Shown: positions 2,583 to 55,516 of the stretch, in pieces | Layout of the letters: the number at the start of each line of letters is the position of its first letter | Numbering within the stretch: the first letter of the stretch is position 1 | From: Actinomycetota bacterium | GTDB taxonomy: Bacteria > Actinomycetota > UBA4738 > HRBIN12 | DNA: 64,000 bases | Direction: 5' to 3' | NCBI GenBank assembly: GCA_040880745.1 | Contig: JBBDHX010000035.1 | Location: 14,068 to 78,067 of the forward strand | Program-made: the position numbers and the translations under genes | The notes under the pieces: generated by a model | What the model saw: the letters and a program-made list of their open reading frames with translations, nothing else | Told to the model about the DNA's origin: nothing | The model's database searches: none

Positions 2583-3223
2583 GCGAGTTGGCGCCCATCG
2601 GCGAGCAGCGCATCGACCGATGGTTGGAAGAGCTGGGCTCGGGTGCCGCCACCCCCGGGGGTGGGGCGTTCGCGGCGCTGAGTGCGGCCGCGGGGGCCGC
2701 CCTCGTGTCCATGGTCGGCCGGCTCACCATCGGCAAGCCGAAGTTCGCCGAGGCCGAGGCCCGCATGCAGGAGATCGTGGCCGAAGCCGACCGCGAGCGC
2801 GTCGATCTGCTGGGGTTCGCCGATCGCGACGCTCAGGCGTTCGACGCGGTCATGTTCGCCTACCGCATGCCGAGGGAGACGGAGGCTGAGCAGACCCAGC
2901 GGCTCCACGCGTTGCAGACGGCCCTCGAGCGCGCCGCCGAGGTGCCGTTGATGGTCGCCCGGCGCGCCGTCTACGTCATGGGCTTGGCCGAGGAAGCCAC
3001 GATGATCGGGAACCCGAACGCCGCCTCCGACGGTATGTGCGCGGCAGCCGGGCTTCACGCCGCCGCCGTCGCGGCCCTGGCGAACGTCCAGATCAATGCC
3101 TTCGCGTTCGTCGACGGTTCCAAGCGAGAGGCGTTGCTCGATGACTGCCGCCGCCTCCGCGATCGCGCCGGACAGGTCCTGGCCGATGTCCACGAGGTGT
3201 TCGAGGAGCGGGTCGGGTCGTAG
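2579..3223 (+). CDS. Cyclodeaminase/cyclohydrolase family protein (formimidoyl-THF cyclodeaminase or methenyl-THF cyclohydrolase)
   Basis: The GTG start overlaps the upstream stop (GTGA) and GGAGGAGGA lies upstream. 'TPGGGAFAALSAAAGAALVSMVGRLTIGK' is typical of the FTCD_C family. Confidence 0.8.
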   Translation: MSELAPIGEQRIDRWLEELGSGAATPGGGAFAALSAAAGAALVSMVGRLTIGKPKFAEAEARMQEIVAEADRERVDLLGFADRDAQAFDAVMFAYRMPRETEAEQTQRLHALQTALERAAEVPLMVARRAVYVMGLAEEATMIGNPNAASDGMCAAAGLHAAAVAALANVQINAFAFVDGSKREALLDDCRRLRDRAGQVLADVHEVFEERVGS

Positions 3224-3263
3224 AGGTCTTGCGCGCCGGGGTTCCGGAGCGCAGGCTTGCGTC

Positions 3264-3677
3264 ATGCGGGTCGATGCGATCGTCTTCGACTGCCGCGTCG
3301 CGGCGCCGCTCGCCAGGTTCTGGGCCGCAGCGCTCGGATGGAGCGTGGCTCCTTCAGACGGTGGCGAGGTCGCGCGCCTCGCCGCCCCCAGGATCGACGA
3401 TATCGATGATCACCACTCGGTCATGGTGGAGCCACCCGAGGAGGATGCGGGCCTCCCTCGGCTGTTCTTCACCGAGGTCCAGGAACCCAAGCTGGCCAAG
3501 AACCGAGTGCACGTCGACGTGATCGCCGACGATGACCTGGAGACCGAGGTGGCGCGGCTCGAGGAGCTGGGCGCCAGGGTCCGGAACTGGGCCGAGCAGG
3601 ACGGCGGCATGTGGTGCGTGATGCTCGACCCTGAGGGCAACGAGTTCTGCGTCATGCCACCCGAGGACGCAGCCTGA
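3264..3677 (+). CDS. VOC/glyoxalase-like domain protein
   Basis: Starts at ATG 3264. 'VDAIVFDCRVAAPLARFWAAALGW...KNRVHVDV...DPEGNEFCV' is the glyoxalase-like fold pattern. Confidence 0.6.
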   Translation: MRVDAIVFDCRVAAPLARFWAAALGWSVAPSDGGEVARLAAPRIDDIDDHHSVMVEPPEEDAGLPRLFFTEVQEPKLAKNRVHVDVIADDDLETEVARLEELGARVRNWAEQDGGMWCVMLDPEGNEFCVMPPEDAA

Positions 3678-3708
3678 GTTCGCTGCAGCCCGCCCCCGTA
3701 GAGGCCGT

Positions 3709-5379
3709 TCAGAACAGGCCGGTCGTCCGGCCTTCCGCGTCGATGTCCACACCCATGAAGTTGGGTGTCTTGCCCAGACCGGGCATCCGTTGCATGTCGC
3801 CGCAGAGCACGACCACGAAGCCCGCGCCGGCGCTGGGGACCACCCCGCGCACCGGGAGCCTGAAACCGCGGGGGCGGTTGAGCAGGAGAGGGTCGTGGCT
3901 GAGCGACAGGTGCGTCTTCGCCATACAGACCGGGGCGGTGCCGAACCCCAGCTCGTTCATCCGCGCGAGGTCCTTCTCGGCCTGAGGGAGGTAGTCGACG
4001 CCCTCGGCGCCGTAGAGCTTCGTGGCGATCGCGTCGATCTGTCCCCGCAGCGGTGTGCCGTCCGGGGTGAGCTGGTGGAACGAGTTGGGCTGTTCGCACG
4101 CCGCCACCACTGCCTTCGCCAGATCGACCGCGCCGGCGCCACCGTCTGCGAAGCCGCGGTTGACGACGACCGTCTCGGCACCGGCGCCCACCGCGAGCTC
4201 GCCGATGAGATCGATCTCCGCGGCGGTGTCGGTGGGGAAGTTGTTGATGGACACCACGCACGGCAGGCCGTACTCGCGCATGATCTCGATGTGGGCCGCC
4301 AGGTTGTCGATACCGCGGCGGAGCGCGTCGAGGTCCTCCGTGCCCAGATCGGCGAAGGCCATGCCGCCGTGCGACTTGGTCGCGCGCACCGTCGTGACGA
4401 GCACGCCGGCGCTCGGGGTGAACCCGCCGAAGCGGCACACGATGTCGCAGAACTTCTGCAGACCCAGGTCGGAGGCGAACCCGGCTTCGGTGATGACGTA
4501 GTCGGCGAGTTTCAGCGCGACGCGGTCTTCGACGATCGAGTTGTTCCCATGGGCGATGTTGCCGAACGGGCCGGCATGCAGCAGCGCCGGCTGGCCCTCG
4601 AGCGTCTGGACCAGGTTGGGCTCGATCGCGTCGCGCATGATCACGGTCATCGCTCCGGCAACCCGCAGGTCCTCCGCCGTCACGGGCGCGCCGTCGTAGG
4701 TCGACGCCACGATGATCCGCCCCAGCCGGGTACGGAGGTCCTGCAGGTCGCTCGTGAGCGCGAGGATCGCCATGATCTCTGACGCGGCGGTGATGACGAA
4801 GCCCTCCTGACGGGGGACGCCGTGCGCCTTGCCGCCGAGACCGACGACGGTGTCGCGCAGTTCGCGATCGTTCACGTCGAGGGCCCGGGGCCACGTGATC
4901 GTCCGCGGATCGATGCCGTGGGGGTTGCCGTGGTAGATCGAGGCGTCGAGCGCTGCGGACAGCAGGTCGTGGGCGGCGGTGACCGCGTGGAAGTCCCCGT
5001 TGAAGTGGAGGTTGATCTCCTCCATGGGGACCACCTGTGCGTAGCCGCCCCCGGTGCCACCACCCTTGATCCCGAACACGGGTCCCATGCTGGGCTCGCG
5101 AAGCGCAAGGACGACCCGTTCGCCGATGGCGCCCAGGCCTTGCGCGAGCGAGACCGACGTGGTCGTCTTGCCCTCCCCGGCCTTCGTGGGCGTGATCGCC
5201 GTGGTGATCACGAGTTTGCCGTCGGGCTTCTCGGCGAGCCGGTCGAGGATCGAGAGCGAGACCTTCGCGCGGTCGGTGCCGTAGGGCTTGAGTTCGTCCG
5301 CGGCGATGCCTGCGTCCGCGGCGACCTCGGTGATGGGTCGGAGCGATGCTGCCTGGGCGATCTCGAGGCCGGACTTCAT
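3709..5379 (-). CDS. fhs: Formate--tetrahydrofolate ligase
   Basis: Full-length 556-aa ORF. 'ITPTKAGEGKTTTSVSL', 'GGGYAQVVPMEEINLHFNGDFHA' and 'EAGFASDLG' are classic Fhs motifs. Confidence 0.95.
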   Translation of the reverse strand: MKSGLEIAQAASLRPITEVAADAGIAADELKPYGTDRAKVSLSILDRLAEKPDGKLVITTAITPTKAGEGKTTTSVSLAQGLGAIGERVVLALREPSMGPVFGIKGGGTGGGYAQVVPMEEINLHFNGDFHAVTAAHDLLSAALDASIYHGNPHGIDPRTITWPRALDVNDRELRDTVVGLGGKAHGVPRQEGFVITAASEIMAILALTSDLQDLRTRLGRIIVASTYDGAPVTAEDLRVAGAMTVIMRDAIEPNLVQTLEGQPALLHAGPFGNIAHGNNSIVEDRVALKLADYVITEAGFASDLGLQKFCDIVCRFGGFTPSAGVLVTTVRATKSHGGMAFADLGTEDLDALRRGIDNLAAHIEIMREYGLPCVVSINNFPTDTAAEIDLIGELAVGAGAETVVVNRGFADGGAGAVDLAKAVVAACEQPNSFHQLTPDGTPLRGQIDAIATKLYGAEGVDYLPQAEKDLARMNELGFGTAPVCMAKTHLSLSHDPLLLNRPRGFRLPVRGVVPSAGAGFVVVLCGDMQRMPGLGKTPNFMGVDIDAEGRTTGLF

Positions 5380-5520
5380 CAGCGGACGGCTCCTTTGGGC
5401 TCGCGTGCGCGCGTGGACCAGCGCGTGAGGCGACGATACAACCCACCGCTCACCGGGCCCAAACCGACCACCCCGATCGTCTGGACGGGAGAACGAGCGT
5501 ACGATGCGATACTGCCGCTC

Positions 5521-7350
5521 GTGGACCCTGCGTCCTTCCTAGCAGCGAACGCCCCGTTCGACGAACTCCCCGCCGATGACCTCGTGGCGGTGATCGGCGC
5601 GACGGAGATCGTGTTCTTCCTCGGTGGCGAAACGGTCCTCGAGGCGGGTGGTGAGGTCCTCGACCACCTGTTCGTCGTGCGCACCGGTGGCGTGGAGTTG
5701 CTCGACGAGGGCCACGTGGTGGACCAGCTTGGAGAGGGTGAGATCTTCGGGGCGCTGTCGCTCTTGTCGGGGGAGCGTCCGCTGTTCACGGTACGCGCCC
5801 ACGAAGAGACGATCTGCTATCGGATCGGGCGCGCGGCAGCCGAGGCCGCGCTGGCCTCTCCCGCGGGTGTGTCGTTCCTCAGCCGAAGCCTGCGCCGGCG
5901 AGAGAGAACGCTCCTGGTCCACGCAGGCGTCACGGCCGCAGACCCATGGACCATGCCGCTCGGCCAGATCGCGACGGCGTCGATCGTGCAGGTGTCCGGG
6001 GATGCCTCGATACGTGAGGCCGCGGCGATGATGGCGACGGCGCGCGCATCCTCGGTCTTCGTCCGCGAGGCCGACGGCTGGGCGATCATGACCGACAGAG
6101 ACCTGCGGGTCCGGGTGGTGGCCGAAGGGGTCGACACGGATACCTCGGTCCGCGGGGTCGCGTCGTCTCCGCTCCTTTCGTTGCCGGCGGACGCCACCGC
6201 TGCGGAGGCGCTCTCGCTGATGTTGGAGGGTGGGATCCACCACGTTCCCGTCACCGAGGCGGGAGACGTGCTGGCGGTCATCACCGACACCGACCTGCTG
6301 GCGTTGGAGCGCCGTTCCGTGCTCCGGCTCCGCAGGGAACTGGAAGCAGCCCCCACCTTCGAGGAGGCGGTGACCGTCGCCCTGCAGGTACCCCGGGCCC
6401 TCGCAGATCTCGTGCTCGCGAGCATGGACCCGCTGGCCGTCGGGCATCTCGCCGCCGTCTTCCGCGACACGCTCACCGCTCGTTTGATCGACCTCACCGT
6501 GCAGCGGCTGGGCTCGCCTCCGTGCCCCTGGTCGTGGCTCGCGCTCGGCAGTCAGGCTCGCTTCGAACAGGGCCTGGTGACCGACCAGGATCACGCACTC
6601 GTCTTCGAGCCCGGGGAGGCCCTGGCCGAAGACCTGGATCCCTACTTCGCGAGTCTCGCGGCGGGTGTGACGCAGGGGCTCGTCGACGCCGGAACGCCTC
6701 GCTGCCGGGCAGGCGTGATCGCCGAAGAGCGCGACTGGCGCGGGCCGCTGCAGGAGTGGACCGCGCGTTTCGCGACCTGGTCGCACGACCGCGACCCGGG
6801 GGCGCTCGGCCGGGCCGCGATCGCGTTCGACCATCGCGCGGTTGCGGGACCCCTCGACATCGACGAGAGCTTCGCGAGGCCCCTCGCGGCGGTGGGGGCG
6901 GAACTGAGCGTGCAGCGCAGGCTCGGTCGATGGGTCATCGACCGGCGCCCGCCGCGGGGGTTCCTTCGCGCCGCGATCGTGGAGGGTCGCGGTACCCGTA
7001 GCCTGACGTTCGACGTGAAGGATCAAGGGATCGCACTGGTCACGAGCCTCGCCCGCGTCCTCGCGCTGCGCGCGGGAGTCAGGGAGAACAGGACGGGGGC
7101 GAGGTTGCGGGCCGCTGTCCGCGCCGGTGTCCTCGAACCGCGCGATGGGGAGGCGCTCGAGGAGGCGTTCGCGCTGCTGTGGCAGGTCCGGCTCGATCAC
7201 CAGGCGGCCCAGGTTCGCGACGGCCTCCCTCCCGATGACCTCGTCGACCCTCGACGGCTCGGCCCGCTCACCCGTCAGGGGCTGAGAGAGGCCTTCCGTA
7301 GGATCGATGCGGGGCAGCAGGTGGTCGCCCTCGAACTCGGGCTCAGGTGA
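5521..7350 (+). CDS. Cyclic-nucleotide-binding / tandem CBS / DUF294 (putative nucleotidyltransferase) domain protein
   Basis: GTG 5521 is the first in-frame start clear of fhs. The N-terminus has a cNMP-binding pattern ('GEIFGALSLL...RTFTVRA'-like). The middle has CBS pairs ('HHVPV...VLAVITDTDLL'). The C-terminus has 'WSWLALGSQARFEQGLVTDQDHALVF', typical of DUF294. Confidence 0.8.
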   Translation: MDPASFLAANAPFDELPADDLVAVIGATEIVFFLGGETVLEAGGEVLDHLFVVRTGGVELLDEGHVVDQLGEGEIFGALSLLSGERPLFTVRAHEETICYRIGRAAAEAALASPAGVSFLSRSLRRRERTLLVHAGVTAADPWTMPLGQIATASIVQVSGDASIREAAAMMATARASSVFVREADGWAIMTDRDLRVRVVAEGVDTDTSVRGVASSPLLSLPADATAAEALSLMLEGGIHHVPVTEAGDVLAVITDTDLLALERRSVLRLRRELEAAPTFEEAVTVALQVPRALADLVLASMDPLAVGHLAAVFRDTLTARLIDLTVQRLGSPPCPWSWLALGSQARFEQGLVTDQDHALVFEPGEALAEDLDPYFASLAAGVTQGLVDAGTPRCRAGVIAEERDWRGPLQEWTARFATWSHDRDPGALGRAAIAFDHRAVAGPLDIDESFARPLAAVGAELSVQRRLGRWVIDRRPPRGFLRAAIVEGRGTRSLTFDVKDQGIALVTSLARVLALRAGVRENRTGARLRAAVRAGVLEPRDGEALEEAFALLWQVRLDHQAAQVRDGLPPDDLVDPRRLGPLTRQGLREAFRRIDAGQQVVALELGLR

Positions 7351-7973
7351 GACGTACGCGGCCTGCGCCGCCGCCTCGGCGCTCCCGGCATCTGCCGTGG
7401 CGGCGAGCCTCCTTCATCGCCCTCGATCTGGAAACGACCGGCCTGGACCTCGGTCACGACCGGATCGTCTCGTTCGGCGCGGTGCCGGTCACCGGCGGAG
7501 TCGTGCGGCTCGGTGAGGCCACCCACGACCTGGTCGATCCGGGAGACCGCGGCCCATCCAGGACCTCGGTCACGATCCACAGGATCCGTCCCGTGGATCT
7601 GGTGGGCGCGATGTCGATGCACGAGGCCGCCGGTGAGCTCGCCGCGTTGCTCGATCGCCGGTATCTCCTCGCGTGGTATGCGCGGGTGGAGACCTCGTTC
7701 CTGGGCTCGCTGTTCGCGATCGCGGACCGGAGCTGGAAACGACGCACCATCGACGTCCGTGATCTGCTGGTGGCGCTCGAGGGGGCATCGACGGCCCGGA
7801 TGCCGCTGACCGCTGCGGCGGGGGCGTGCGGCGTCCCCGTCGCCGACCCGCACCATGCTCTGGACGACGCTCTCGTCACGGCGCAGCTGTTCGTGGTGCT
7901 CGCGAGCCGTCTGGAGGCACGGGATGGACGCGCAACGGTCGGTGAGCTGCTCCGTCTGCCCCGGACGGCGTGA
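7347..7973 (+). CDS. DEDD-type 3'-5' exonuclease (DnaQ/epsilon-like)
   Basis: The GTGA overlap with the upstream gene suggests translational coupling. The ExoI motif is 'FIALDLETTGL' and the C-terminal 'HHALDDALVTAQL' is ExoIII (DEDDh). Confidence 0.8.
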   Translation: MRRTRPAPPPRRSRHLPWRRASFIALDLETTGLDLGHDRIVSFGAVPVTGGVVRLGEATHDLVDPGDRGPSRTSVTIHRIRPVDLVGAMSMHEAAGELAALLDRRYLLAWYARVETSFLGSLFAIADRSWKRRTIDVRDLLVALEGASTARMPLTAAAGACGVPVADPHHALDDALVTAQLFVVLASRLEARDGRATVGELLRLPRTA

Positions 7974-8004
7974 CCCCTGCGGCGCCACGGCCGATACTGA
8001 GGGG

Positions 8005-8841
8005 GTGACCGCTACCGAGCCGATCCGCCGCAACGTGACCCCGGTGAGGATCACGGCCGTGCACGGCGGGGTTCGCTCCGAGCGAGCCGACACGCTCGCG
8101 ACCGAGGAGCCATTGGAGATCCGGGTCCAGGGCCCCGACGGACCTGCGCAGCAGGTCGCGGTGACCATGCGCACACCCGGCGGTGACTTCGAGCTGGCCC
8201 TGGGTTTCCTGTTCACCGAGGGTCTCATCACGCCGGTTGACGTCGTCCGCGTCGCCTATTGCGACGACGTCGAGGACGAGGCGCAGCGGTACAACGTGGT
8301 CACCGTGACGCTCGCCCGGCGGTTGGACCCCGCCGTACTGCGGCGCAACTTCTACGCGACCTCGAGCTGCGGCGTGTGCGGGAAGGCTGCCCTCGATGAC
8401 ATCGAGGTCCGATGTACTCCCGTCGCCGAAGGGATCACGGTGCCACTCGAAGTGCTCCTGGGGCTGCCGGACGTGCTTCGCAGCGGGCAGAAGGTGTTCG
8501 ATCGAACGGGCGGACTGCACGCCGCCGGGCTCTTCACGCCCGAGGGCCGGCTGGTCACGATCCGCGAGGACGTGGGCCGTCACAACGCCGTCGACAAGGC
8601 GGTGGGGGAGCAGCTCCTGGCCGGCGGGCTCCCGCTATCGGATCGCATCCTGCAGGTCAGCGGGCGCCTCTCGTTCGAGATCGTCCAGAAGGCCGCCGTC
8701 GCGGGGATCCCGATCGTGAGCGCCGTCTCCGCGCCGTCCTCGCTCGCTGTCGAGGCCGCCGAGCGCTTCGGCATGACGCTCGTCGGGTTCGTCCGCGACG
8801 GGCGCGCTAACGTGTATGCGCGCCCCGACCGGATCGTGTGA
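8005..8841 (+). CDS. fdhD: Formate dehydrogenase accessory sulfurtransferase FdhD
   Basis: '[13 protein letters not shown]', 'GGLHAAGLF' and '[13 protein letters not shown]' are FdhD signatures. GTG 8005 was chosen as the first start after the upstream stop. Confidence 0.9.
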
Positions 8842-8935
8842 TCGAGGGTCACGGCGGCGCAACCCCGGGTACGACTCTGCTCGGCGCCGGGGTACGATCG
8901 ACCGGACCGGGACCGCCCCGGTGAAGGAGACGTCG

Positions 8936-10855
8936 ATGGCGGCAACGTTGACCCGGCTCACCGAGCCCATGGTTCGCGACGACGGCGTACTGCGCACGGC
9001 CACCTGGGACGAGGCTCTCGATCGTGCTGCCCAAGGCCTGCGCCGCGCCATGGATCGCAACCCCGGCTGGGGAGCGGGCATCTTCAGTTGCTCGAAGGCG
9101 ACCAACGAGATGAACTTCGCCGCAGGCAAGTTCGCCCGCCAGGTCCTTCGAACCAACAACATCGATAGCTGCAACCGCACCTGACACGCACCTTCGGTCG
9201 TCGGTCTGGCGACCGTGTTCGGTGCCGGTGGGGGTACCAGCTCGTACGAGGAGGTCGAGCAGACCGACCTCATCGTGCTGTGGGGATCGAATGCGCGCAA
9301 CGCGCATCCGATCTTCTTCCACCATGTCCTGAAGGCGATGGAACGCGGCGCCAAGGTCATGGTCGTCGACCCCCGGCGGAGCGAGACCGCCGAGTTCGCC
9401 GACCTCTGGCTCGGGATCGACGTGGGCTCCGACATCGCCCTCTCGAACACGATGGCGCGCGAGATCATCCACGCGGAGCTCGGTCACGCTGGGTTCATCG
9501 CCGGCGGCACAACCGGCTACGACGAGTACGCCGCGAGCGTCGAGGACTGGAGCCTCGAGCGCGGCGAGCAAGTGACCGCTGTCCCCGCCGACGCGATCCG
9601 CGAACTCGCCCACGCCTACGCGACGGCCGAGAACGCGATGATCTGCTGGACGCTCGGCATCACCGAGCACCACAACGCCGTCGACAACGTGCTCGCGCTC
9701 ATCAACCTTGGCCTGCTGACGGGCCACGTCGGCCGCTACGGCAGCGGGCTCAACCCGCTCCGGGGTCAGAACAACGTCCAGGGCGGCGGCGACATGGGCG
9801 CCATCCCGAACAAGCTCGCCGGGTTCCAGGACATCGAGACGGACCCCGAGGCGCGCGCGAAGTTCGAGGCCGCATGGGGTGTCGAGATCATCCCGAAGTA
9901 CGGGTGGCACTTGACGCACATGTTCGAGGCGATGGAGCGCGGCGAGCTCACCGCCTGCTACGTGATCGGCGAGAACCCCGCCACCTCCGAGGCCGACATG
10001 GATCACGCCGTGCACCTGCTCGAGGGCCTCGACACCCTGATCGTGCAGGATCTCGTGATGACGAAGACCGCTGAGATGGCCGACGTGGTGTTCCCGGCTT
10101 CGCACGCCTCGTTCGAGTCCGAGGGGACCGTGACCAACTCCGAGCGCCGGGTGCAGCGGGTTCGCAAGGCGTTGGAGCCACCTGGCGAGGCGCGCGACGA
10201 CATCTGGATCATCGCGCAGCTCGCGGAGCGCCTCGGGGTCGGGTGGGGCGACCCGACGCCGGAGGAACTCTGGGACGAGATGCGCTCGCTCTCCCCGATG
10301 CATCGACTGATGTCGTGGGACCTGATCGAGGAGCTCGGCGGGGTCCAGTGGCCCTGCGACGAGGAGTATCCGCAGGGTGCGAAGTTCCTCCACGAGCGAC
10401 TCTGGCGCTTCGACGATCCCGAGGGGCAGGGCCGCAAGGCGCCGTTCTCCGTGGTGATCGACGCCCCGCCGAAGGACGAGCTGTCCGAGGAGTACCCGAT
10501 GCGCCTGACCACCGGCCGCCGCCTCGAGTCCTACAACACCGGCGTGCAATCGGGGTCGTTCTCCTCGCCGCTGCACCGTGGTGAGACGCTGGACCTCTCA
10601 CCCGAGGACGCGTCGGCGCTCGGCGTGGAGGTCGGCGAGGTCGTCCGGATCGTGTCTCGCCGTGGGGAGATCGAAGCGCCCGTGCACGTCACCACGGCGC
10701 TCCGACCCGGGCTCGCGTTCATGACGTTCCATTTCCCGGACGAGGTCGAGACGAACAAGATCACGAACGAGGCCTACGACCCGAAGTCGGGCACCTCGGA
10801 GTTCAAGGCCACCGCGATCCGCGTGGAGAAGCTCGCCGTGGCGGCGGGAAGGTAG
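8936..10855 (+). CDS. Formate dehydrogenase catalytic (bis-MGD) subunit, with in-frame TGA 9182-9184 read as selenocysteine; lacks the usual N-terminal Fe-S domains
   Basis: Track ORFs 8816..9184 and 9215..10855 share one frame. The joined sequence '...NNIDSCNRT-[TGA]-HAPSVVGL...' matches the FdhF/FdhA active-site block at the Sec/Cys position. ATG 8936 follows AAGGAG. '[18 protein letters not shown]' and the C-terminal '[13 protein letters not shown]' are typical of the family. Confidence 0.85.
9188..9225 (+). other. Putative bacterial SECIS hairpin directing Sec insertion at UGA 9182-9184
   Basis: The lower stem pairs 9188-9192 GCACC with 9221-9225 GGUGC. The upper stem pairs 9195-9202 CGGUCGUC with 9208-9215 GGCGACCG. 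The apical loop is GGUCU at 9203-9207. Counting the U of UGA as 1, loop G/U fall at positions 23/24. Confidence 0.75.
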
Positions 10856-10865
10856 CCTGCGCGGC

Positions 10866-12701
10866 GTGGACCTGAAGCTGATGGCGGCGGACCCCTCCGC
10901 CGAGGAGCGAGCTGCCGTCGACGAGGTGCTCGGCGCGCCCGAGACCGGCTGGGACGGAGGCGAACGCAGCGCCCGCGACCTGCGCGTCTCCCGCGCTCCC
11001 GAGGACCAGCGCACGCTGCTGCTGCCGGTGCTGCATGCGCTCCAAGCTCGGGTCGGCTGGATCAGCGAGGGCGGTCTCAACTACGCCTGCGAGCGGCTGC
11101 AGGTGCCGCCAGCCGAGGCCTACGGCGTCGCGACCTTCTACGCGATGTTCAGCGTCACGGAGCGATCCAAGACGGTGGTGCACGTCTGCGACGACCTCGC
11201 CTGCCGTATCCAGGGCGGTGCCGACCTTGTGGCCGAAGCTGAAGCGGCGGATCTGCCCGGTGTGCAGATCGTCGCGAGCCCATGCCTTGGGATGTGTGAG
11301 CAGGCTCCGGCCATCTTCGCCCAGCGCTCGGGACGCCCGGAGGTCGCCCTGGGAGGGGCGACGATGCCGACGATCCGAGCCGCCGTGCCCGAGGACTCAA
11401 CCGTGGTATGTGCCGGCGGCGTCATGGCCCCTCAGGCGTGGGACGAGGGCAGCCGCCCCGGGCTCCGTCTCCTCGCTCGTTTCGGTCAGGCCGATCCTCT
11501 CACTCTCGAGAGCTATCGGGACCACGGCGGCTACCGGGCACTCGCGAGATCCCTCGAACTGGGTGCCGATGCCACCATCCAGGAGGTGACCGACGCGAAG
11601 CTCCTCGGCCGCGGCGGCGCCGCGTTCCCCACGGGGGTGAAGTGGCGGGCCGTCGCCGATCAGCCCGTGACGCCCAAGTACGTCATCTGTAACGCCGACG
11701 AGTCAGAGCCCGGCACGTTCAAGGACCGCCTGATCATGGAACTGGATCCGTTCAGCGTCGTCGAGGCGCTCACCATCGCTGGGTTCGCCGCCGGGGCCGA
11801 GACCGGCTTGGTGTACGTCCGCGGGGAGTATCCACTTGCCACGGAACGCCTCGCCGAGGCGCTGGCACAGGCGCGCGAGGCAGGGCTTCTGGGGACCGAC
11901 GTGCTGGGCGCCGGGTTCTCCTTCGACATCGAACTGCGGCGCGGCGCCGGCGCCTACATCTGCGGCGAGGAGACGGCGCTCTTCAACTCGATCGAGGGCA
12001 AGCGGGGCGAGCCGCGCAACAAGCCACCCTTCCCGGTCACGCACGGTCTCTTCGGGAAGCCGACCGCGATCAACAACGTCGAGACCCTCATCAACGTGCT
12101 CCAGGTCCTCACGATGGGACCGGAGGCGTACGCGGCGCTCGGCACCGAAGGCTCGACCGGCACGCGCCTGTTCTGCCTCTCGGGCCACGTCGAGCGGCCC
12201 GGCGTCTACGAGCATGAGCACGGCATCACGCTCGGCGAGGCGATCGAGGCCGCGGGCGGCGTGCGGGACGGCGAACCACTCAAGGCGGTGCTGCTCGGCG
12301 GGGCCGCCGGCGGGTTCGTCGGGCCCGACCGTCTCGACATCCGCCTCACGTTCGAGGACGCTCGGGCTGGCGGCTACACCCTCGGCTCCGGCGTGGTCAT
12401 GGTCTTCGACGAGGACACCGACCTCGTGGACATCTGTCTTCGCATCGCGCGCTTCTTCCGCGATGAGTCGTGCGGACAGTGCGTGCCGTGCCGCGTCGGC
12501 ACCGTGCGGCAGGAGGAGGCCTTGCATCGGCTCGTGGCCGGGCGGACGTTCGGTTCGAAAGCCGACGAACTCGCGTTGCTCGGTGATGTCGCGGCCGTGA
12601 TGCGCGACGCCTCGATCTGCGGCCTCGGACAGACGGCCGCGAGCGCCGTGCAGTCTGCGATCGCAACGTTCGGCCTGTTCGAGGACGGGGCGGCGTCGTG
12701 A
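10866..12701 (+). CDS. NuoE-like (2Fe-2S) / NuoF-like (FMN, NAD, 4Fe-4S) fusion protein; diaphorase module of NAD-dependent formate dehydrogenase
   Basis: The N-terminal 'ATFYAMF...VCDDLAC...SPCLGMCEQAP' is NuoE-like. 'GRGGAAFPTGVKW', 'CNADESEPGTFKDR' and 'ESCGQCVPCRVGT' are NuoF-like. The start is GTG 10866 or ATG 10881. Confidence 0.9.
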   Translation: MDLKLMAADPSAEERAAVDEVLGAPETGWDGGERSARDLRVSRAPEDQRTLLLPVLHALQARVGWISEGGLNYACERLQVPPAEAYGVATFYAMFSVTERSKTVVHVCDDLACRIQGGADLVAEAEAADLPGVQIVASPCLGMCEQAPAIFAQRSGRPEVALGGATMPTIRAAVPEDSTVVCAGGVMAPQAWDEGSRPGLRLLARFGQADPLTLESYRDHGGYRALARSLELGADATIQEVTDAKLLGRGGAAFPTGVKWRAVADQPVTPKYVICNADESEPGTFKDRLIMELDPFSVVEALTIAGFAAGAETGLVYVRGEYPLATERLAEALAQAREAGLLGTDVLGAGFSFDIELRRGAGAYICGEETALFNSIEGKRGEPRNKPPFPVTHGLFGKPTAINNVETLINVLQVLTMGPEAYAALGTEGSTGTRLFCLSGHVERPGVYEHEHGITLGEAIEAAGGVRDGEPLKAVLLGGAAGGFVGPDRLDIRLTFEDARAGGYTLGSGVVMVFDEDTDLVDICLRIARFFRDESCGQCVPCRVGTVRQEEALHRLVAGRTFGSKADELALLGDVAAVMRDASICGLGQTAASAVQSAIATFGLFEDGAAS

Positions 12702-13645
12702 GCGCGATCCCGGTCGACATGCCGAGGCGTCTCCTCGACATCGAGATCGACGGAGAGACCCTTCGCATCCCCGAGGGCGCCACGATCCTCGACGCGTGCC
12801 GGGCCCAAGGCGTCGACACTCCCACGATGTGTTACGCGGATAACCTCACGCCGATCAACGCCTGCCGGGTCTGCGTCGTGGAGGTCGAGGGCGCCCGCGT
12901 GCTCGCGCCCGCGTGCTCGCGCAAGGCTGAGGACGGGATGAAGGTCAGGACCGGCACGGAGCGCGTGAGGACCTCCCGCAAGCTCGTGATGGAGTTCCTC
13001 GGTTCGAGCGTGGACACCTCGCTGGCGGGCGCCGACTGGCACCGCTGGATCGGCGAGTACGAAGCGGACCCCGATCGGTTCGGCGCACGGATGGAGCCGA
13101 TGGAGGCGGGGGAGCGCGACGCGCGCGCGCCCGGCCACCACCACGATCCCGACCCCGCCACGGCCGAGACCGTCGCGCAGCCGGTCAAGGTGGACAACGA
13201 CCTCTACGTCCGCGACTACGAGCGCTGCGTGCTCTGCTACAAGTGCGTGGAGGCGTGCGGGACCGACGCCCAACACACCTTCGCGATCGCGGTGGCGGGC
13301 CGGGGCTTCGACGCGCGCATCTCCACCGAGTACGCGGTGCCCCTGGACTCGAGCGCGTGCGTCTACTGCGGCAACTGCATCGGTGTGTGCCCCACCGGCG
13401 CGCTGATGTTCACGAGCGAGCACGACATGCGGGCCGCCGGCACGTGGGACGATGCGGCGCAGACCGTCACGAACACGATCTGTCCCTACTGCGGTGTCGG
13501 ATGCGAGCTTGAACTTCACGTCCAGGACAACACGATCGTCAAGGTCACCTCGCCCGCCGATCACTCGATCACGAACGGGCACCTGTGTATCAAGGGCCGG
13601 TTCGGCTACCAGTTCGTCCAGCGCCGCAAGGGAGCGCCGCGCTGA
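12698..13645 (+). CDS. Fe-S module equivalent to the N-terminus of FdhA/NuoG (2Fe-2S, two 4Fe-4S ferredoxin motifs, 4Fe-4S Mo/W bis-MGD-type domain)
   Basis: Motifs present are 'CRVCVVEV', 'CVLCYKCVEAC', 'CVYCGNCIGVCPTGAL' and 'CPYCGVGCELEL...LCIKGRFGYQF'. The protein ends exactly where the MGD domain would normally begin. It overlaps the upstream gene through GTGA. Confidence 0.85.
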   Translation: MSAIPVDMPRRLLDIEIDGETLRIPEGATILDACRAQGVDTPTMCYADNLTPINACRVCVVEVEGARVLAPACSRKAEDGMKVRTGTERVRTSRKLVMEFLGSSVDTSLAGADWHRWIGEYEADPDRFGARMEPMEAGERDARAPGHHHDPDPATAETVAQPVKVDNDLYVRDYERCVLCYKCVEACGTDAQHTFAIAVAGRGFDARISTEYAVPLDSSACVYCGNCIGVCPTGALMFTSEHDMRAAGTWDDAAQTVTNTICPYCGVGCELELHVQDNTIVKVTSPADHSITNGHLCIKGRFGYQFVQRRKGAPR

Positions 13646-14327: not shown

Positions 14328-15638
14328 ATGCCACGCCGAGTCCTGATCATGGGAGCCGCGGGCCGCGACTTCCACAACTTCAACACCGTGTTCCGCGATG
14401 ACCCCAGCACCGAGGTCGTGGCGTTCACCGCGACGCAGATCCCCTACATAGATGACCGGCGCTATCCGCCGTCGCTCGCGGGCACGAACTACCCCGACGG
14501 GATCCACATCCACGACGAGTCCGAGTTGGTCCGCCTGATCCACGACCTGAAGGTCGACGACGTCGTGTTCGCCTACTCCGATGTCGGCCATGACTACGTG
14601 ATGCACAAGGCCTCCACGGTGATGGCGGCCGGGGCGAACTTCGTGCTCCTGGGGCCCGATGCGACGATGCTGCGGGCAACCGTCCCCACCGTCGCAGTCA
14701 CGGCTGTCCGCACGGGTGTGGGGAAGTCGCAGACGACGCGCGCGGTAGCGGGCGCCCTCAAGGAGGCCGGCAAGCGGGTCACGGCCGTCCGCCACCCCAT
14801 GCCCTACGGCGATCTGGCCGCCCAGGCCGTCCAACGTTTCGCCGAGCTGGCCGACCTCGACCGGCATCACTGCACCATCGAGGAGCGTGAGGAGTACGAG
14901 CCGCACATCACGAGCGGCACCGTCATCTACGCCGGCGTCGACTACGGCGCGATCTTGGAGCAGGCGCAGGCCGAGTGCGACGTCTTGCTGTGGGACGGTG
15001 GGAACAACGACCTGCCCTTCTACCGGCCCGACGTCTGGATCACCCTCGTCGACCCGCTCCGCGCCGGTCACGAGCTGACCTATCACCCGGGGGAGACCAA
15101 CCTCCGCGCCGCCGGTGTCGTGCTCATCAACAAGGTGGACTCCGCGACCCCCGAGCAGATGGACCAGCTCCGGCGCACGATCGCCGAGGTCAACCCCGAG
15201 GCCACGCTCGTCGAGGCGGATTCGAAGATCAGCTGCGACGACCCCGCTGCCATCGCCGGCAAGCGGGTGCTGGTGGTCGAGGACGGTCCCACGCTCACGC
15301 ACGGCGATATGAAGATCGGCGCTGGCGTGGTGGCCGCGCAGCGGCTCGGCGCCGCCGAGATCGTCGACCCCCGCCCGTGGGCGGTCGGCACGATCGCCGA
15401 GACCTTCGAGAAGTACGACGTCGGGGCCGTGCTCCCCGCGATGGGCTACAGCCAGGGCCAGCTGGACGAGATGGCGAAGATCATCGATGCGGTCGATGCG
15501 GACGTCGTGATCGTCGGCACGCCGATCGACCTGCGACAGGTGATCGACATCGCGAAACCGGCCGTTCGGGTCCGCTACGACCTCGAGATCTTGCCGGGCT
15601 CGCCCAGCCTCGCCGACATCCTGGCGCCGGTCCTGTAA
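14328..15638 (+). CDS. COG2403-type P-loop protein (usually annotated predicted GTPase or cyclic 2,3-diphosphoglycerate synthetase-like)
   Basis: 436-aa ORF. The N-terminal 'VLIMGAAGRDFHNFN', the Walker A-like 'VRTGVGKSQTT' and 'LINKVD' fit. The family assignment is from memory and was not searched. Confidence 0.6.
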   Translation: MPRRVLIMGAAGRDFHNFNTVFRDDPSTEVVAFTATQIPYIDDRRYPPSLAGTNYPDGIHIHDESELVRLIHDLKVDDVVFAYSDVGHDYVMHKASTVMAAGANFVLLGPDATMLRATVPTVAVTAVRTGVGKSQTTRAVAGALKEAGKRVTAVRHPMPYGDLAAQAVQRFAELADLDRHHCTIEEREEYEPHITSGTVIYAGVDYGAILEQAQAECDVLLWDGGNNDLPFYRPDVWITLVDPLRAGHELTYHPGETNLRAAGVVLINKVDSATPEQMDQLRRTIAEVNPEATLVEADSKISCDDPAAIAGKRVLVVEDGPTLTHGDMKIGAGVVAAQRLGAAEIVDPRPWAVGTIAETFEKYDVGAVLPAMGYSQGQLDEMAKIIDAVDADVVIVGTPIDLRQVIDIAKPAVRVRYDLEILPGSPSLADILAPVL

Positions 15639-15650: not shown

Positions 15651-16589
15651 ATGGACCGGGTCGTCGTCGCGCTCGGGGGCAACGCATTGCTGCGCCGCGG
15701 TGCCGAGGACACCTACGAGGAGGTGCACGCGGCCTCCCGGCGCGCCGCCGAGATCGTCGCGGACATCGCCGCGGACGGGTGGGAGGTCGTGCTCACACAC
15801 GGCAACGGTCCGCAGGTCGGCAGGATCTTGATGCAACAGGAAGCGGCGGCCAAGCAGGTCCACCCGATGCCGCTGGACGTCTGTGGGGCGCAGAGCCAGG
15901 GCCAGATCGGCTACCTGTTGCAGGTCACGATCGGCGACGTTTTCTTCGAACGGGGGATGGAGCGCCCGGTCGTCACGATCTTGACCCTCACGAGGGTCCG
16001 CCCGCAAGATCCGGCGTTCGGTAAGCCCTCGAAATTCATCGGCCCCTTCTTCACCGAGGCGCAGGCGCACCGGCGGGAGGAGCAGCGCGGCTGGGTGATG
16101 AAGCCCGACCCGCATGGAGGATGGCGCCGCGTCGTCCCCAGCCCCAAGCCGTACTCGATCGTGGAGACGCCTGTGATCCGTGGGCTCGTCGGAGATGGCG
16201 TGATCGTGATCGCTGCCGGCGGCGGCGGGGTCCCGGTGATCGAGAAGGGCCCTCGGTTGATCGGTAAAGAAGGGGTCGTCGACAAGGACCTCGCGGCCGC
16301 GATCTTGGCGCACGAGGTGCAGGCTCCGGTCCTGCTGATCCTCACGGACGTGTCCAAGGTGCAACGGGGTTACGGTTCGCTCCTCCCGGAGGACATCGAC
16401 CGCATGACCACCGCGCAGGCGCGGGCCATGCTCAAGCAGGGCGAGTTCGGGGCGGGGTCCATGGGACCCAAGATCGAGGCGGCGGCCCGGTTCGTCGAAG
16501 AAGGGGGTGAGCGTGCCGTGATCGCGGAACTGACGGAGGCGGTCGCCGCGCTCCACGGCGAGGCCGGGACAGAGGTCGTGCCCGGCTAG
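15651..16589 (+). CDS. arcC: Carbamate kinase
   Basis: 'VVALGGNALL', 'VLTHGNGPQVG', 'GGGGVPV' and 'VDKDLAAA' are carbamate kinase motifs. Confidence 0.9.
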   Translation: MDRVVVALGGNALLRRGAEDTYEEVHAASRRAAEIVADIAADGWEVVLTHGNGPQVGRILMQQEAAAKQVHPMPLDVCGAQSQGQIGYLLQVTIGDVFFERGMERPVVTILTLTRVRPQDPAFGKPSKFIGPFFTEAQAHRREEQRGWVMKPDPHGGWRRVVPSPKPYSIVETPVIRGLVGDGVIVIAAGGGGVPVIEKGPRLIGKEGVVDKDLAAAILAHEVQAPVLLILTDVSKVQRGYGSLLPEDIDRMTTAQARAMLKQGEFGAGSMGPKIEAAARFVEEGGERAVIAELTEAVAALHGEAGTEVVPG

Positions 16590-25847: not shown

Positions 25848-27086
25848 TCAGGAGAGGTCGGCGAGCGCCTGCAGGACGCGGTCCACTTCGTCGGGCAGGT
25901 GGTAATGGCAGAACCCGATGCGCACCGCGCCGCCGGACTCGAGCAGACCGAGCCGCTCGAACACCTCGATCGCGTAGTAGTGGCCGTCCCACGTGAAGAT
26001 GCCTCGCTCGGCGAGTGCCGCGGACGTGTCGAGCGGATGCTGCTCGCCCAGACGGATCGCGAACGTCGAGGTCCGCTCGCCGAGGCGACCAGGATCGGCG
26101 ATCCCGAACAGCCGGACGCCGCGGATCCGCCCGAGACCGTCGAGGAACCTCGCGGACAACGAGGCCTCGTGCGCGCCGATCGCGGCGAACGCATCGGCGA
26201 GGCGCTCACGGCGCATGGCGCCCGCTCCGAGCCCCGCCAAGTAGTCGATCGCGGCGATCGTGCCGGCCATCGATTCATGGCTCTGCGTCCCGGTCTCCCA
26301 GCGGTCGGGGTCGACGTCGTCCACGGGACGCAACTTGTACGGCTCCCACGACCGCAGCACGTCTCCCCGCACGGCCACCATGCCCTGATGCGGACCGAAG
26401 AACTTGTACGGGCTCGTCGCCAGGATGTCTGCGCCCGAGTCGTGCAGGCCGGGGAGCCTGTGCTGCGCGAAGTGCACCCCGTCGAGCACCACCAGCGCCC
26501 CTACCGCCTTGGCCCGGCGGACCACCTCGCCGACCGGTGGTGTGGTCCCGACGGCGTTGGAGGCGAGGGTGCACGCGACCAAACGTGTCCGGTCCGAGAG
26601 CGCCGCGTCCAGGGAATCGAGGTCGAGGGTCACGTCCGCCGGGTCGATGTCGACCCAGCGCACCGTCGCGCCGGCATCGCGCGCCGCCAGGACCCACGGC
26701 CGGACGTTCGCGTCATGGTCCAAGCGTGTGACCACGACCTCGTCATCAGGCCCGAGCGTCCGCGAGAAGGAACGCGAGAGATGCAGCAGGACCGAGGTCG
26801 CGTTCTGCCCGAACACCACTTCGTCCGGGTCACACCCCAGGAAGTCGGCCCCGGCCGTGTGCGCGGCTGCGATCACTTCATCGATGGCCCGGCTGGCGGC
26901 GAACGCTCCGTGGGTGTTGGAGGCGCCTTCGCGCATCCGTCCCGCGACCGCCTCGATGACCTCGCTCGGCACCTGCGAGCCGCCGGGCGCGTCAGCCCAG
27001 ACGAACGGGCACCCGTCAGCCGCGGTCCATCCGAGCGCGGGGAAGCGCGCACGGATCGCGGCCACGTCGAGCGAACTCTCACCCAC
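25848..27086 (-). CDS. Class V aminotransferase-fold PLP enzyme (cysteine desulfurase-like family)
   Basis: 412-aa ORF with a GTG start. 'ADAPGGSQVP', 'TSPYKFFGPHQG' (PLP-Lys region) and the overall SufS/CsdA-like layout fit. Confidence 0.8.
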   Translation of the reverse strand: MGESSLDVAAIRARFPALGWTAADGCPFVWADAPGGSQVPSEVIEAVAGRMREGASNTHGAFAASRAIDEVIAAAHTAGADFLGCDPDEVVFGQNATSVLLHLSRSFSRTLGPDDEVVVTRLDHDANVRPWVLAARDAGATVRWVDIDPADVTLDLDSLDAALSDRTRLVACTLASNAVGTTPPVGEVVRRAKAVGALVVLDGVHFAQHRLPGLHDSGADILATSPYKFFGPHQGMVAVRGDVLRSWEPYKLRPVDDVDPDRWETGTQSHESMAGTIAAIDYLAGLGAGAMRRERLADAFAAIGAHEASLSARFLDGLGRIRGVRLFGIADPGRLGERTSTFAIRLGEQHPLDTSAALAERGIFTWDGHYYAIEVFERLGLLESGGAVRIGFCHYHLPDEVDRVLQALADLS

Positions 27087-27132
27087 CGCCGAAGCGTCTC
27101 AGACGCGAGGACCGATCGTGCGGACGTCTGGG

Positions 27133-39055: not shown

Positions 39056-39301
39056 GGTACGCCCCCGATGTATCCCGGTACGACCGGGCGTCGGCCGGCC
39101 GCGATCCTGCATGCCTTCGGGCGCCCGGATCGTGACAGTAGGAGGAAGGGGCCGGGCCGGGCCGGCGGACGCCCCGCGCGGCCCCAGGTTCGCAACTTCA
39201 GGCATCCCGGTCCGGCCCGACCCCTGGGCCCCGAGATTACATCGTTGTGATCCGCATGATGCGGATCCGGCTCTTCACCGATGGGAAGTAGACTCCTGCG
39301 G

Positions 39302-39787
39302 ATGGGACGTGCGCTCGTCCTCAACGTGACCGAAGTGCCGCTCGCGGTCGTTCCCGCGAGGCGTGCGGTCGTGCTCGTCCTCAAGGACAAGGCCGACGTG
39401 GTCGTCTCCAACGGCGCCATCTTCCGGGCCGAGCACATCGCGATGGACGCGCCCTCGGTCGTTCGTTTGCGTCATTTCGTGCACGTTCCCTACCGGGCGC
39501 ACGCGCCGCTCACGCGCAGAGCCGTGTTCGCGCGGGACGGGTGGGCGTGCCAGTACTGCGGTACGGTTGCAGAGAACCTCGACCACGTTGTGCCGCGCAG
39601 CCGCGGCGGGCTGCATGTGTGGGAGAACGTGGTGGCGGCGTGCCGGCGGTGCAACGCCAAGAAGATGGACCGCACGCCGGCTGAGGCCGGCTACCGGCTC
39701 GCCCGGCAACCTTTCGCTCCCTCCGACGGCTTCCGGCTCACCCTCGGTCAGCCCGACCCGGACTGGGAACGCTTCCTCCTGTCGTAG
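39302..39787 (+). CDS. HNH endonuclease (McrA-like small HNH protein)
   Basis: 'CQYCG...LDHVVPRSRGG...WENVVAACRRCNAKK' is the HNH motif. Starts at ATG 39302. Confidence 0.85.
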   Translation: MGRALVLNVTEVPLAVVPARRAVVLVLKDKADVVVSNGAIFRAEHIAMDAPSVVRLRHFVHVPYRAHAPLTRRAVFARDGWACQYCGTVAENLDHVVPRSRGGLHVWENVVAACRRCNAKKMDRTPAEAGYRLARQPFAPSDGFRLTLGQPDPDWERFLLS

Positions 39788-39838: not shown

Positions 39839-39884
39839 TTGACGCAGTGGAGCGTTAGTGGCATAAACGGGGACCCAAGTGGAG
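39839..39884 (+). promoter_or_regulatory. Candidate Pmra promoter (TTGACG-17 nt-CATAAA) with phased GTGG repeats, possible MraZ operator
   Basis: TTGACG is at 39839-39844 and CATAAA at 39862-39867. GTGG starts at 39847, 39858 and 39879, and a CGGGG lies near 39868, giving spacings of roughly 11, 11 and 10 bp. Confidence 0.4.
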
Positions 39885-39899
39885 GAAAGGGGAGGACGC

Positions 39900-40328
39900 G
39901 TGGCCGAACTGCTGGGCACGCACAGCTACCAGCTCGACCCGAAGGGGCGCGTGTCCCTGCCGGCGAGGTTCCGTGAGGCGTTCGCCGACGGGGCCTGGCT
40001 CACCATCGGCCAGGACGGGTGTCTCTTCGCCTTCCCCAGGGTCGAATGGGAGCGGCGGTCCGTCGAGGTCGCAGCGTCCCCCCTTTCCGACGCACCGGGG
40101 CGTGCCTACGCGCGGATGTTCTTCGGCTCATCCGACGAAGCGAAGCTCGACACGCAGGGACGGCTGACCATCCCCGGGCGGCTGCGCGAGACGGTCGGCA
40201 TCCGCAAGGACGTCGTCGTGCTGGGCGTGCGCGACCGCATGGAGATCTGGGACCGCGAGACGTATGAGCGCTACGAGACCACGTTCGCCGGCGCGTATCA
40301 GGCCGGGACCATCGAGCCAGGGAGGTAG
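39900..40328 (+). CDS. mraZ: Transcriptional regulator MraZ
   Basis: GTG 39900 follows GGAGGA. 'LGTHSYQLDPKGRVSLPARFR' and a second 'DTQGRLTIPGRLR' are the duplicated SpoVT/AbrB-like MraZ motifs. Confidence 0.9.
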   Translation: MAELLGTHSYQLDPKGRVSLPARFREAFADGAWLTIGQDGCLFAFPRVEWERRSVEVAASPLSDAPGRAYARMFFGSSDEAKLDTQGRLTIPGRLRETVGIRKDVVVLGVRDRMEIWDRETYERYETTFAGAYQAGTIEPGR

Positions 40329-40331
40329 GGG

Positions 40332-40448
40332 ATGGAACCACAGAAACTCGCCGCGGAGGTTCGCCAGAGCCTGTCGCTGATAGCGATGACGGGGCTGACC
40401 CTGTTGACGTCGCTCGCGTTCGGGTTGCTCGTCGGTCACGTCGGGTGA
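40332..40448 (+). CDS. Possible 38-aa membrane peptide between mraZ and rsmH (not in the ORF track); the region could instead be a structured RNA leader
   Basis: GGAGG is at 40321-40325, then ATG 40332. My translation is MEPQKLAAEVRQSLSLIAMTGLTLLTSLAFGLLVGHVG*. Third positions are mostly G/C. The stop TGA overlaps the rsmH GTG start (GTGA). Confidence 0.35.
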   Translation: MEPQKLAAEVRQSLSLIAMTGLTLLTSLAFGLLVGHVG

Positions 40449-43409: not shown

Positions 43410-43441
43410 CCCCCGCGGGCGGGGATGTAGGATCGCGCTCG

Positions 43442-54045: not shown

Positions 54046-54097
54046 GCGGGTTGTCATCCTCACCGACGATCCGAGGCTACCGGCGCCGCCGAGCCGC

Positions 54098-54127
54098 TTG
54101 ACGCGGGCGGCCATCTGTGGGTAAGTT
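54098..54127 (+). promoter_or_regulatory. Candidate ftsZ promoter TTGACG-18 nt-TAAGTT, at the edge of an AT-rich patch
   Basis: TTGACG is at 54098-54103 and TAAGTT at 54122-54127. The region 54122-54165 is conspicuously AT-rich for this window. Confidence 0.4.
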
Positions 54128-55393: not shown

Positions 55394-55430
55394 GCGGATC
55401 GGCGTCGCCCCGCGCGGCCCCGCGCGAGCG

Positions 55431-55515: not shown

Positions 55516-55516
55516 T

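Follow-up and report, generated by a model that had tools for sequence, protein, structure and literature searches.

We analyzed a 64,000-nucleotide stretch of DNA from an Actinomycetota bacterium (GCA_040880745.1, contig JBBDHX010000035.1), referred to here as the window, which contains a formate dehydrogenase (FDH) operon whose catalytic subunit gene, fdhA, is interrupted by an in-frame UGA. The genes of interest all lie on the forward strand. The first, fdhD (7855..8841), encodes the formate dehydrogenase accessory sulfurtransferase (Pfam FdhD-NarQ, 7.5e-67; NCBIfam NF001943, 309 bits against a cut-off of 269); since its family matches begin only at residue ~60, its true start may lie further downstream. 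It is followed by fdhA (8936..10855), which encodes the alpha subunit in 639 codons, and by the beta gene (10866..12701), whose 611-aa product fuses a NuoE-like [2Fe-2S] domain to a NuoF-like module for flavin mononucleotide (FMN), NAD(H), and a [4Fe-4S] cluster (Pfam 2Fe-2S_thioredx, Complex1_51K, SLBB, and NADH_4Fe-4S; NCBIfam nuoF_fam and nuoE_fam). The gamma gene (12698..13645) encodes a 315-aa protein with a [2Fe-2S] domain, two [4Fe-4S] ferredoxin motifs, and a Molybdop_Fe4S4 domain (Pfam Fer2_4, Fer4, and, at residues 256-308, Molybdop_Fe4S4). The UGA occupies positions 9182..9184 and is codon 83 of fdhA, a predicted selenocysteine (Sec) codon; directly 3' of it, at 9185..9230, lies a hairpin that we interpret as a candidate selenocysteine insertion sequence (SECIS).

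The UGA shares its frame with the two open reading frames (ORFs) 8816..9184 and 9215..10855, and it is the sole interruption of a 639-codon frame that runs from ATG 8936 to the stop at 10855. This arrangement had been described in an earlier note on the same DNA, and it was confirmed base for base. The most plausible start of fdhA is ATG 8936, which lies 6 nt 3' of a Shine-Dalgarno-like GAAGGAG read directly from the sequence at 8923..8929 on the forward strand. When the UGA is read through, the product reaches it as ...NNIDSCNRT-[UGA]... and continues to the end of the gene. UGA is otherwise an ordinary stop codon in the source genome, ending 23 of the 31 Pfam-supported ORFs in the window, so that a change in the genetic code does not explain the in-frame UGA.

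The read-through product is the alpha subunit of an FDH of the type that carries molybdenum or tungsten on a bis-pyranopterin guanine dinucleotide (bisPGD) cofactor. Its residues 7-432 match the Pfam Molybdopterin domain (PF00384; 2.9e-67, 227.6 bits), and residues 522-626 match Molydop_binding (PF01568; 1.8e-26, 92.7 bits). Its closest relatives in the PDB are all formate dehydrogenases: FdhF of the Thermoanaerobacter kivui hydrogen-dependent CO2 reductase (HDCR; 7qv7_S, 7e-141), a protein deposited as "Formate dehydrogenase" (7bkb_D, 9.2e-140), an F420-dependent FDH (9t1s_L, 7.2e-130), E. coli FdhH (1aa6_A, 1.1e-125), and Rhodobacter capsulatus FdsA (6tg9_A, 1e-123). In these alignments, the UGA falls on the Cys or Sec of the CARLCH/CARLXH motif. 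A pairwise alignment to E. coli FdhH, for which fdhF was taken from an E. coli RefSeq genome, covers 620 residues at 38% identity and pairs U83 with U140, H84 with H141, and R276 with R333. Both comparisons bear out the claim of the earlier note that the UGA sits in the catalytic Sec/Cys column of E. coli FdhF.

The same comparisons show that alpha is incomplete at its N-terminus relative to FdhH. The start of fdhA corresponds to FdhH residue ~60, and the N-terminal Fe4S4 domain is missing from alpha. TIGR01591 matches alpha over profile positions 52-672 with 618.7 bits, which is under its curated equivalog cut-off of 666.25, and profile positions 1-50 are matched instead by gamma residues 260-309. 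The Fe4S4 domain that normally stands at the N-terminus of alpha is thus found on a separate protein in this operon.

The hairpin has two stacked stems and an apical loop. Positions 9185-9192 pair with 9221-9230 to form the base and the lower stem; within these, the lower stem proper joins GCACC (9188-9192) to GGUGC (9221-9225), and three further pairs lie beneath it at the base. The upper stem joins CGGUCGUC (9195-9202) to GGCGACCG (9208-9215) through 8 bp, 6 of them conserved, and it carries the loop GGUCU at 9203-9207. Counting the U of the UGA as position 1, G23 falls at 9204 and U24 at 9205, and the loop bases G22 and G23 lie 21-22 nt past that U. Bacterial SECIS hairpins are described as having stems 6-8 bp long and, roughly 20 nt downstream of the UGA, a conserved G in the loop (PMC4605307), and the critical bases of the E. 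coli element are U17, G23, and U24, of which the bulged U17 contributes to SelB binding (PMC8659212). The window's element agrees with these descriptions in stem length, in distance from the UGA, and in G23 and U24, but it has neither the bulged U17 nor an Rfam score at the gathering level.

Comparison with relatives was more informative than any single-sequence property. A scan of one genome per bacterial species yielded 80 orthologous loci, mostly from metagenome-assembled genomes (MAGs) of uncultured Actinomycetota, Thermoleophilia, Solirubrobacterales, and Gaiellales, with 69-90% protein identity to the window. The closest locus, at 90%, comes from a soil MAG labeled "Actinomycetota bacterium." The TGA is present in all 80 loci, in the same column and within the invariant context DSCNRT*HAPSV. 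The frame is open for at least 83 codons upstream of the TGA and for at least 524 codons (median 560) downstream. Frameshifts or decay of the downstream half in relatives, which the earlier note had named as signs against a Sec codon, were not seen, both halves being open throughout.

An alignment of the hairpin region from the 80 loci and the window (81 sequences, 67 of them distinct) revealed that the RNA itself is conserved. The loop GGTCT is invariant among the 81 sequences, so that G23 and U24 are both fixed, even though U24 is a free wobble position. In the upper stem, pair 18/30 is C-G in 50 sequences, G-C in 31, and broken in none. Each of its two bases falls at a synonymous wobble position, one in Val (GUC/GUG) and one in Ala (GCG/GCC), and on a neighbor-joining tree built from the protein with the SECIS region removed, the pair has undergone at least 12 switches, every one of them involving both sides. 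In the lower stem, pair 9/42 is found as U-A, A-U, G-U, G-C, and C-G. The covariation score of the hairpin was 0.118, compared to 0.041 ± 0.006 for shuffles (none of 500 reached the observed value) and at most 0.042 when the partners were slid out of register.

The wobble positions of the whole gene tell the same story. Among 113 conserved four-fold-degenerate codon columns in 78 complete orthologs, the commonest wobble base had a median share of 0.60, and only two columns had an invariant wobble base: the Val GUC that supplies the loop-closing C21 and the Gly GGU that supplies U24. Both are at the hairpin apex. GGT makes up 15.5% of the Gly codons in the window's genes. The hairpin apex is under selection at the RNA level.

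The codons just downstream of the UGA bear on one rival explanation, according to which translation terminates at the UGA and restarts at GTG 9215, yielding an 82-aa peptide, a 546-aa protein, and an enzyme without a Sec or Cys ligand. GTG 9215 is the start that gene callers choose, and split subunits do occur in this very enzyme, as the Fe-S domain is encoded by a separate gene. However, the ten codons from the UGA to GTG 9215 include the catalytic His, and the amino acids that they encode are conserved although the codons differ synonymously. The peptide HAPSVVGL after the UGA is conserved, and the Ser codon of HAPSV alternates between the AGC and TCN families (43 AGC, 35 TCN), with at least 13 changes on the tree and the amino acid kept each time. 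Switches between AGC and TCN that preserve the amino acid indicate that the ten codons after the UGA are translated in frame, which excludes a stop at the UGA with a restart at GTG 9215. In addition, no Shine-Dalgarno sequence precedes 9215, and the Cys-type homologs described below are continuous, with Cys in the column of the UGA. To our knowledge, the metal ligand is essential in all characterized FDHs of the family, which also counts against an enzyme lacking it. We consider this explanation extremely unlikely.

Several observations weigh against reading the UGA as a Sec codon with an adjacent SECIS. The minimum free energy (MFE) of the hairpin is −23.3 kcal/mol, which in a region of 70% GC gives a z-score of only −1.23; 24 of 200 dinucleotide shuffles folded equally well. 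No Rfam family reached its gathering score anywhere in the window, with SECIS_2 at 20.2 bits against a gathering score of 70 and SECIS_3 at 16.6 against 63. The bulged U17 of the E. coli type is not formed; no bulge is predicted, and U17 pairs with position 31, which is A in 79 of the 81 sequences and G in two. In the lower stem, 18 of the 81 sequences have a broken pair 9/42. Finally, no selA, selB, selD, or tRNA-Sec was found in the 64-kb window or within ±10 kb in the 80 related loci, and the Sec machinery is therefore assumed here.

The Rfam result was mixed rather than simply negative. When positions 9100-9320 were searched permissively, SECIS_2 (E = 0.11, 9177-9231) and SECIS_3 were the two best matches in Rfam, both over the full length of the model. 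The hairpin coordinates, the GGUCU loop, and the G23/U24 positions in the earlier note were exact. Its description of a "textbook" SECIS with the geometry of fdhF held up in part: the G23/U24 register is that of E. coli fdhF, but the bulged U17 is absent and the Rfam models remain below threshold.

The search for Sec machinery combined three approaches. ARAGORN reported no tRNA of any kind in the 64-kb window and no tRNA-Sec in the 80 loci with their flanks. Pfam scans of 36 ORFs in the window found no SelA, SelB, or SelD, and tblastn with E. coli SelA, SelB, and SelD matched nothing, either in the window or in the 80 loci together with their flanks of ±10 kb. The only enzyme of SelA's general class, those dependent on pyridoxal phosphate (PLP), is encoded at 25848-27098; it is cysteine desulfurase-like (TIGR01976) and not SelA. 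The sel genes are not linked to the fdh operon within ±10 kb. However, the UGA and its SECIS are kept under selection in 81 genomes, and on this basis the source organism very likely encodes the Sec machinery elsewhere.

Some of these points could also be taken to favor a pseudogene or sequencing error, in which case the TGA would be a true stop, the enzyme would be inactive or absent, and the hairpin would be an incidental GC-rich structure. The stability of the hairpin is not significant by itself, the window shows no Sec machinery, and gene callers read the TGA as a stop across the family. Against this stands the recurrence of the same TGA in 80 of 80 orthologs from genomes of different species, with both halves open and conserved and with the surrounding variation being only synonymous and compensatory. 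The beta, gamma, and fdhD genes have been retained, and the diversity of the loci (67 distinct SECIS regions, 69-90% protein identity) means that they are not copies of one sequence. Neither an error nor a decaying gene would yield a conserved TGA, compensatory variation, and retained partner genes together, and we regard this explanation as effectively refuted.

Homologs that use Cys provide a natural comparison. Among the protein matches listed, a few full-length homologs (65-69% identity) carry Cys in the column of the UGA. At the nucleotide level, a metagenome contig syntenic with the window (L081) has TGC followed by GGC CTC at the loop, Kutzneria buriramensis (L082) has TGC and GGC CTG, and Thermopolyspora (L084) has TGC and GGG TTG. 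Imposing the window's fold on these three sequences gave −6.3, +0.6, and −7.4 kcal/mol, respectively, compared to −22.2 kcal/mol for the window, and the structure is largely lost. Thus, three of four Cys-type homologs have no hairpin features, and the fourth keeps GGT CTG. The latter is in an Actinoallomurus sp. MAG (L085, GCA_035643735.1), which encodes a Sec-type alpha copy at 957-2864, with TGA at codon 81 and the full SECIS apex, and directly downstream a Cys-type copy at 2945-4876 that uses TGT. Because the GGT CTG is retained right beside a Sec-type paralog, the Cys copy appears to have arisen recently from a Sec-type gene, with the SECIS apex left as a remnant. Conversions of FdhA from Sec to Cys are common and sometimes leave remnant SECIS-like structures (PMC1794560). 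The expectation that Sec use would be patchy in this group is consistent with these Cys-type relatives, one of which is syntenic with the window.

The Cys-type homologs also help to evaluate a third explanation, in which the UGA is read through by some means other than the Sec system, such as a near-cognate Trp or Cys tRNA or another form of recoding, and the hairpin acts as a generic stimulator. Selenium-starved bacteria insert Cys or Trp at UGA at a low level, which lends the idea some plausibility, as does the fact that the Sec machinery was not observed in the window or within ±10 kb of the 80 loci. However, SelB contacts G23 and U24 in the E. coli element, and here both bases are invariant and in the same register; Trp at the position of the metal ligand would be non-functional. 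Lineages that use Cys encode it with TGC and then lose the hairpin. Moreover, an architecturally identical enzyme, FDH3 of Actinomycetospora chiangmaiensis, is selenium-dependent. Read-through without the Sec system is, in our judgment, highly unlikely.

Taken alone, neither the stability of the hairpin nor its Rfam scores are convincing, but the comparative evidence goes far beyond chance and, in our view, settles the question. We conclude that UGA 9182-9184 is most probably a Sec codon decoded through the adjacent SECIS, with a probability of roughly 0.93. In the mechanism that we propose, fdhA would encode the Sec-containing catalytic subunit of a three-subunit formate dehydrogenase that is cytoplasmic and NAD-linked. 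The UGA would be recoded as Sec83, a Mo/W ligand equivalent to Sec140 of FdhH, with the mRNA hairpin at 9185-9230 directing the recoding. SelB would bring Sec-tRNA(Sec) to the UGA in competition with release factor 2 (RF2). Electrons from formate would pass from the Mo/W center to the Fe4S4 and further Fe-S clusters of the separate gamma protein, then from gamma to the FMN of the NuoE/NuoF-fusion beta subunit, and finally to NAD+, and FdhD would sulfurate the cofactor. We infer the activity of a cytoplasmic formate:NAD+ oxidoreductase from the domain content of the three subunits.

The SECIS of E. coli fdhF is the natural reference for the predicted element. Of 5,426 E. coli genomes, 5,419 carry this reference element under the fdhF annotation, and the consensus of Rfam SECIS_2 is identical to the E. 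coli fdhF sequence. In both genes, the UGA is followed by CAC, GGUCUG stands at positions 22-27 with G23 and U24 in the same register, and the loop encodes the Gly-Leu of an SV(A/V)GL motif. The apices differ: E. coli has a GGUC tetraloop on a 5-bp stem with the bulged U17, whereas the window has a GGUCU pentaloop with C-G as the closing pair, and the stem beneath it is continuous over 6-8 bp and lacks a bulge. The proteins also differ: the N-terminal Fe4S4 domain is part of FdhH itself, and FdhH operates within the formate-hydrogenlyase complex. The SECIS of Moorella thermoacetica fdhA, reportedly co-crystallized with the C-terminal domains of SelB by Yoshizawa and colleagues in 2005, is said to have an uninterrupted stem that ends in a C-G pair closing a GGUCU loop (GCC-GGUCU-GGC); it would then resemble the window's GUC-GGUCU-GGC more closely than E. 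coli fdhF does. The Moorella and window elements differ in organism, in enzyme complex, and in lower-stem sequence.

At the level of the enzyme, the closest counterpart is FDH3 of A. chiangmaiensis DSM 45062 (Rohwerder et al. 2020). Its FdhA3 has 640 aa with Sec at U80, its 614-aa FdhB3 resembles NuoE plus NuoF, and its FdhC3 is a separate 316-aa Fe-S protein that replaces the N-terminal domain of alpha (PMC7176365). Compared by description, the window's operon has the same domain content and nearly the same sizes (639 with U83, 611, and 315 aa, against 640 with U80, 614, and 316 aa), and FDH3 is likewise actinobacterial, cytoplasmic, and predicted to be NAD-linked. A. chiangmaiensis removed formate in a selenium-dependent manner, and proteomics detected the three FDH3 subunits along with SelA, SelB, and SelD (PMC7176365). 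The window comes from a different, uncultured lineage, and it is for A. chiangmaiensis that selenium dependence and expression were demonstrated.

Other known systems share parts of this arrangement. The FdsABG-type FDHs (Rhodobacter capsulatus 6tg9, Cupriavidus necator, and Methylorubrum extorquens FDH1) also combine a Mo/W catalytic domain with NuoE/NuoF-type diaphorase modules and a NuoG-like Fe-S domain, and their overall electron path from formate to NAD+ is the one predicted here. In these enzymes, however, the Fe-S domain is fused to the N-terminus of an alpha subunit of ~960 aa and the ligand is Cys (PMC7176365 supplement), whereas in the window the Fe-S domain is a separate gene after beta, NuoE and NuoF are fused, and the ligand is predicted to be Sec. 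The mycobacterial Sec FDH is, like the window's enzyme, an FDH selenoprotein of actinobacterial origin whose UGA is followed by a SECIS, and it is typically missed by annotation, UGA being the commonest stop codon (PMC13449736). It is of the fdhA/fdoG type (FDH-N/O-like), with selC-selA-selB drawn in the same locus (PMC13449736); the window's enzyme is of the cytoplasmic, NuoEF-linked type and has no sel genes within 10 kb.

The composition of the operon is conserved among the relatives. The beta gene lies downstream of alpha in 73 of the 80 loci, and the gamma gene is present in 65, which is the number of loci with sufficient downstream sequence. In 60 of the 80, fdhD lies upstream on the same strand. 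The Cys-type relatives carry the same three genes for alpha, beta, and gamma, and the splitting of alpha, by which the Fe4S4 and NuoG-like Fe-S domain becomes a separate gene after the NuoE/NuoF fusion, is conserved in Sec-type and Cys-type relatives alike.

Genes of folate metabolism are found upstream of the operon in the window. Pfam identified a GCV_T-family aminomethyltransferase at 387-1622, a formiminotransferase (FTCD) at 1623-2582, and a formate-tetrahydrofolate ligase (FTHFS) at 3709-5538 on the reverse strand. FTHFS is also upstream in 40 of the 80 related loci and in the Cys-type locus L081. The adjacency of the FTHFS, FTCD, and GCV_T genes suggests that formate comes from folate-bound one-carbon (C1) units, and the role of the enzyme is probably the oxidation of formate released from them.

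Other neighbors were recorded as well. An ORF at 4822-7350 encodes a protein with cyclic nucleotide (cNMP)-binding, CBS, and DUF294 nucleotidyltransferase domains, which adjoins fdhD and FTHFS in L081 too. It overlaps the opposite-strand FTHFS gene by ~700 nt, and its real start is therefore probably further downstream; its L081 homolog has 634 aa. Beyond the gamma gene, a 436-aa ORF at 14328-15638 has no NCBIfam match and only weak Pfam matches to cobW/CbiA P-loop families, and it is followed by a carbamate kinase gene at 15651-16589 (TIGR00746, 371 bits). In 33 of the 80 loci and in L081, the same two genes are conserved after the fdh operon. An actinobacterial-type division and cell wall (dcw) cluster occupies 39867-57741 and comprises mraZ, a penicillin-binding protein (PBP) transpeptidase gene, a Mur ligase gene, mraY, ftsW, murG, ftsQ, ftsZ, a YggS-like gene, sepF, and a DivIVA-like gene. 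Immediately before mraZ is an ORF for an HNH endonuclease (39260-39787). Apart from the one in fdhA, the only in-frame TGAs in the window with coding-like flanks are at 1620-1622, between GCV_T and FTCD, and at 56219-56221, between the YggS-like gene and sepF. In both cases, they are plain junctions of adjacent genes from different families that share a frame and are therefore not selenoprotein candidates.

Copies of the split FDH also occur in MAGs binned outside the Actinomycetota, including Vicinamibacteria, Acidobacteriota, and others. Orthologs with 70-77% identity were found in seven such loci (L004, L049, L050, L052, L063, L064, and L072), whose MAGs were binned as Planctomycetaceae, Vicinamibacteria, Acidobacteriota, or Chthonomonadales. 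Four of them, binned as Vicinamibacteria or Acidobacteriota (L050, L052, L063, and L064), share a distinctive AGA Arg codon, two codons before the TGA, with a Thermoleophilia locus (L080). These five loci, together with L049, which has CGG instead of AGA, also use GCC for the Ala after the His. Codon features common to differently binned MAGs suggest horizontal transfer or, alternatively, mis-binning.

Among bacterial selenoproteins, Sec-containing FdhA is the most widespread, present in 67 of 75 Sec-using genomes (PMC1794560), and the FDH3 architecture and its selenium dependence have already been described (PMC7176365), so the biology as such is not new. The 81-sequence alignment describes a GC-rich SECIS variant, with a GGUCU pentaloop, no bulged U, and strong covariation, which is not captured at threshold by the current Rfam SECIS models, and it could seed a better one.

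A broader proposal would be that a wide clade of soil Actinomycetota, most of it uncultured, requires selenium for its NAD-linked split FDH, which is catalogued nearly everywhere in truncated, ligand-less form, and that the Fe-S split may be an adaptation to recoding. We regard this proposal, taken as a whole, as doubtful. The split places the UGA at codon ~83 rather than ~380, and a failed Sec insertion would waste only a short peptide. However, the split is also present in Cys-type relatives, which argues against a Sec-specific origin.

In practice, the findings matter chiefly for annotation. Automated annotation had been expected to split this gene, and it does so throughout the family: among the matches listed, more than 100 protein clusters (73-95% identity, ~85% query cover) are 545-569 aa long and start after the TGA. 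These truncated entries are without the catalytic residue and the first ~90 residues of the protein, and the family is systematically mis-annotated in public protein collections. With its homologs recorded in this form, both the capacity for formate oxidation and selenium dependence are under-called in these soil Actinomycetota.

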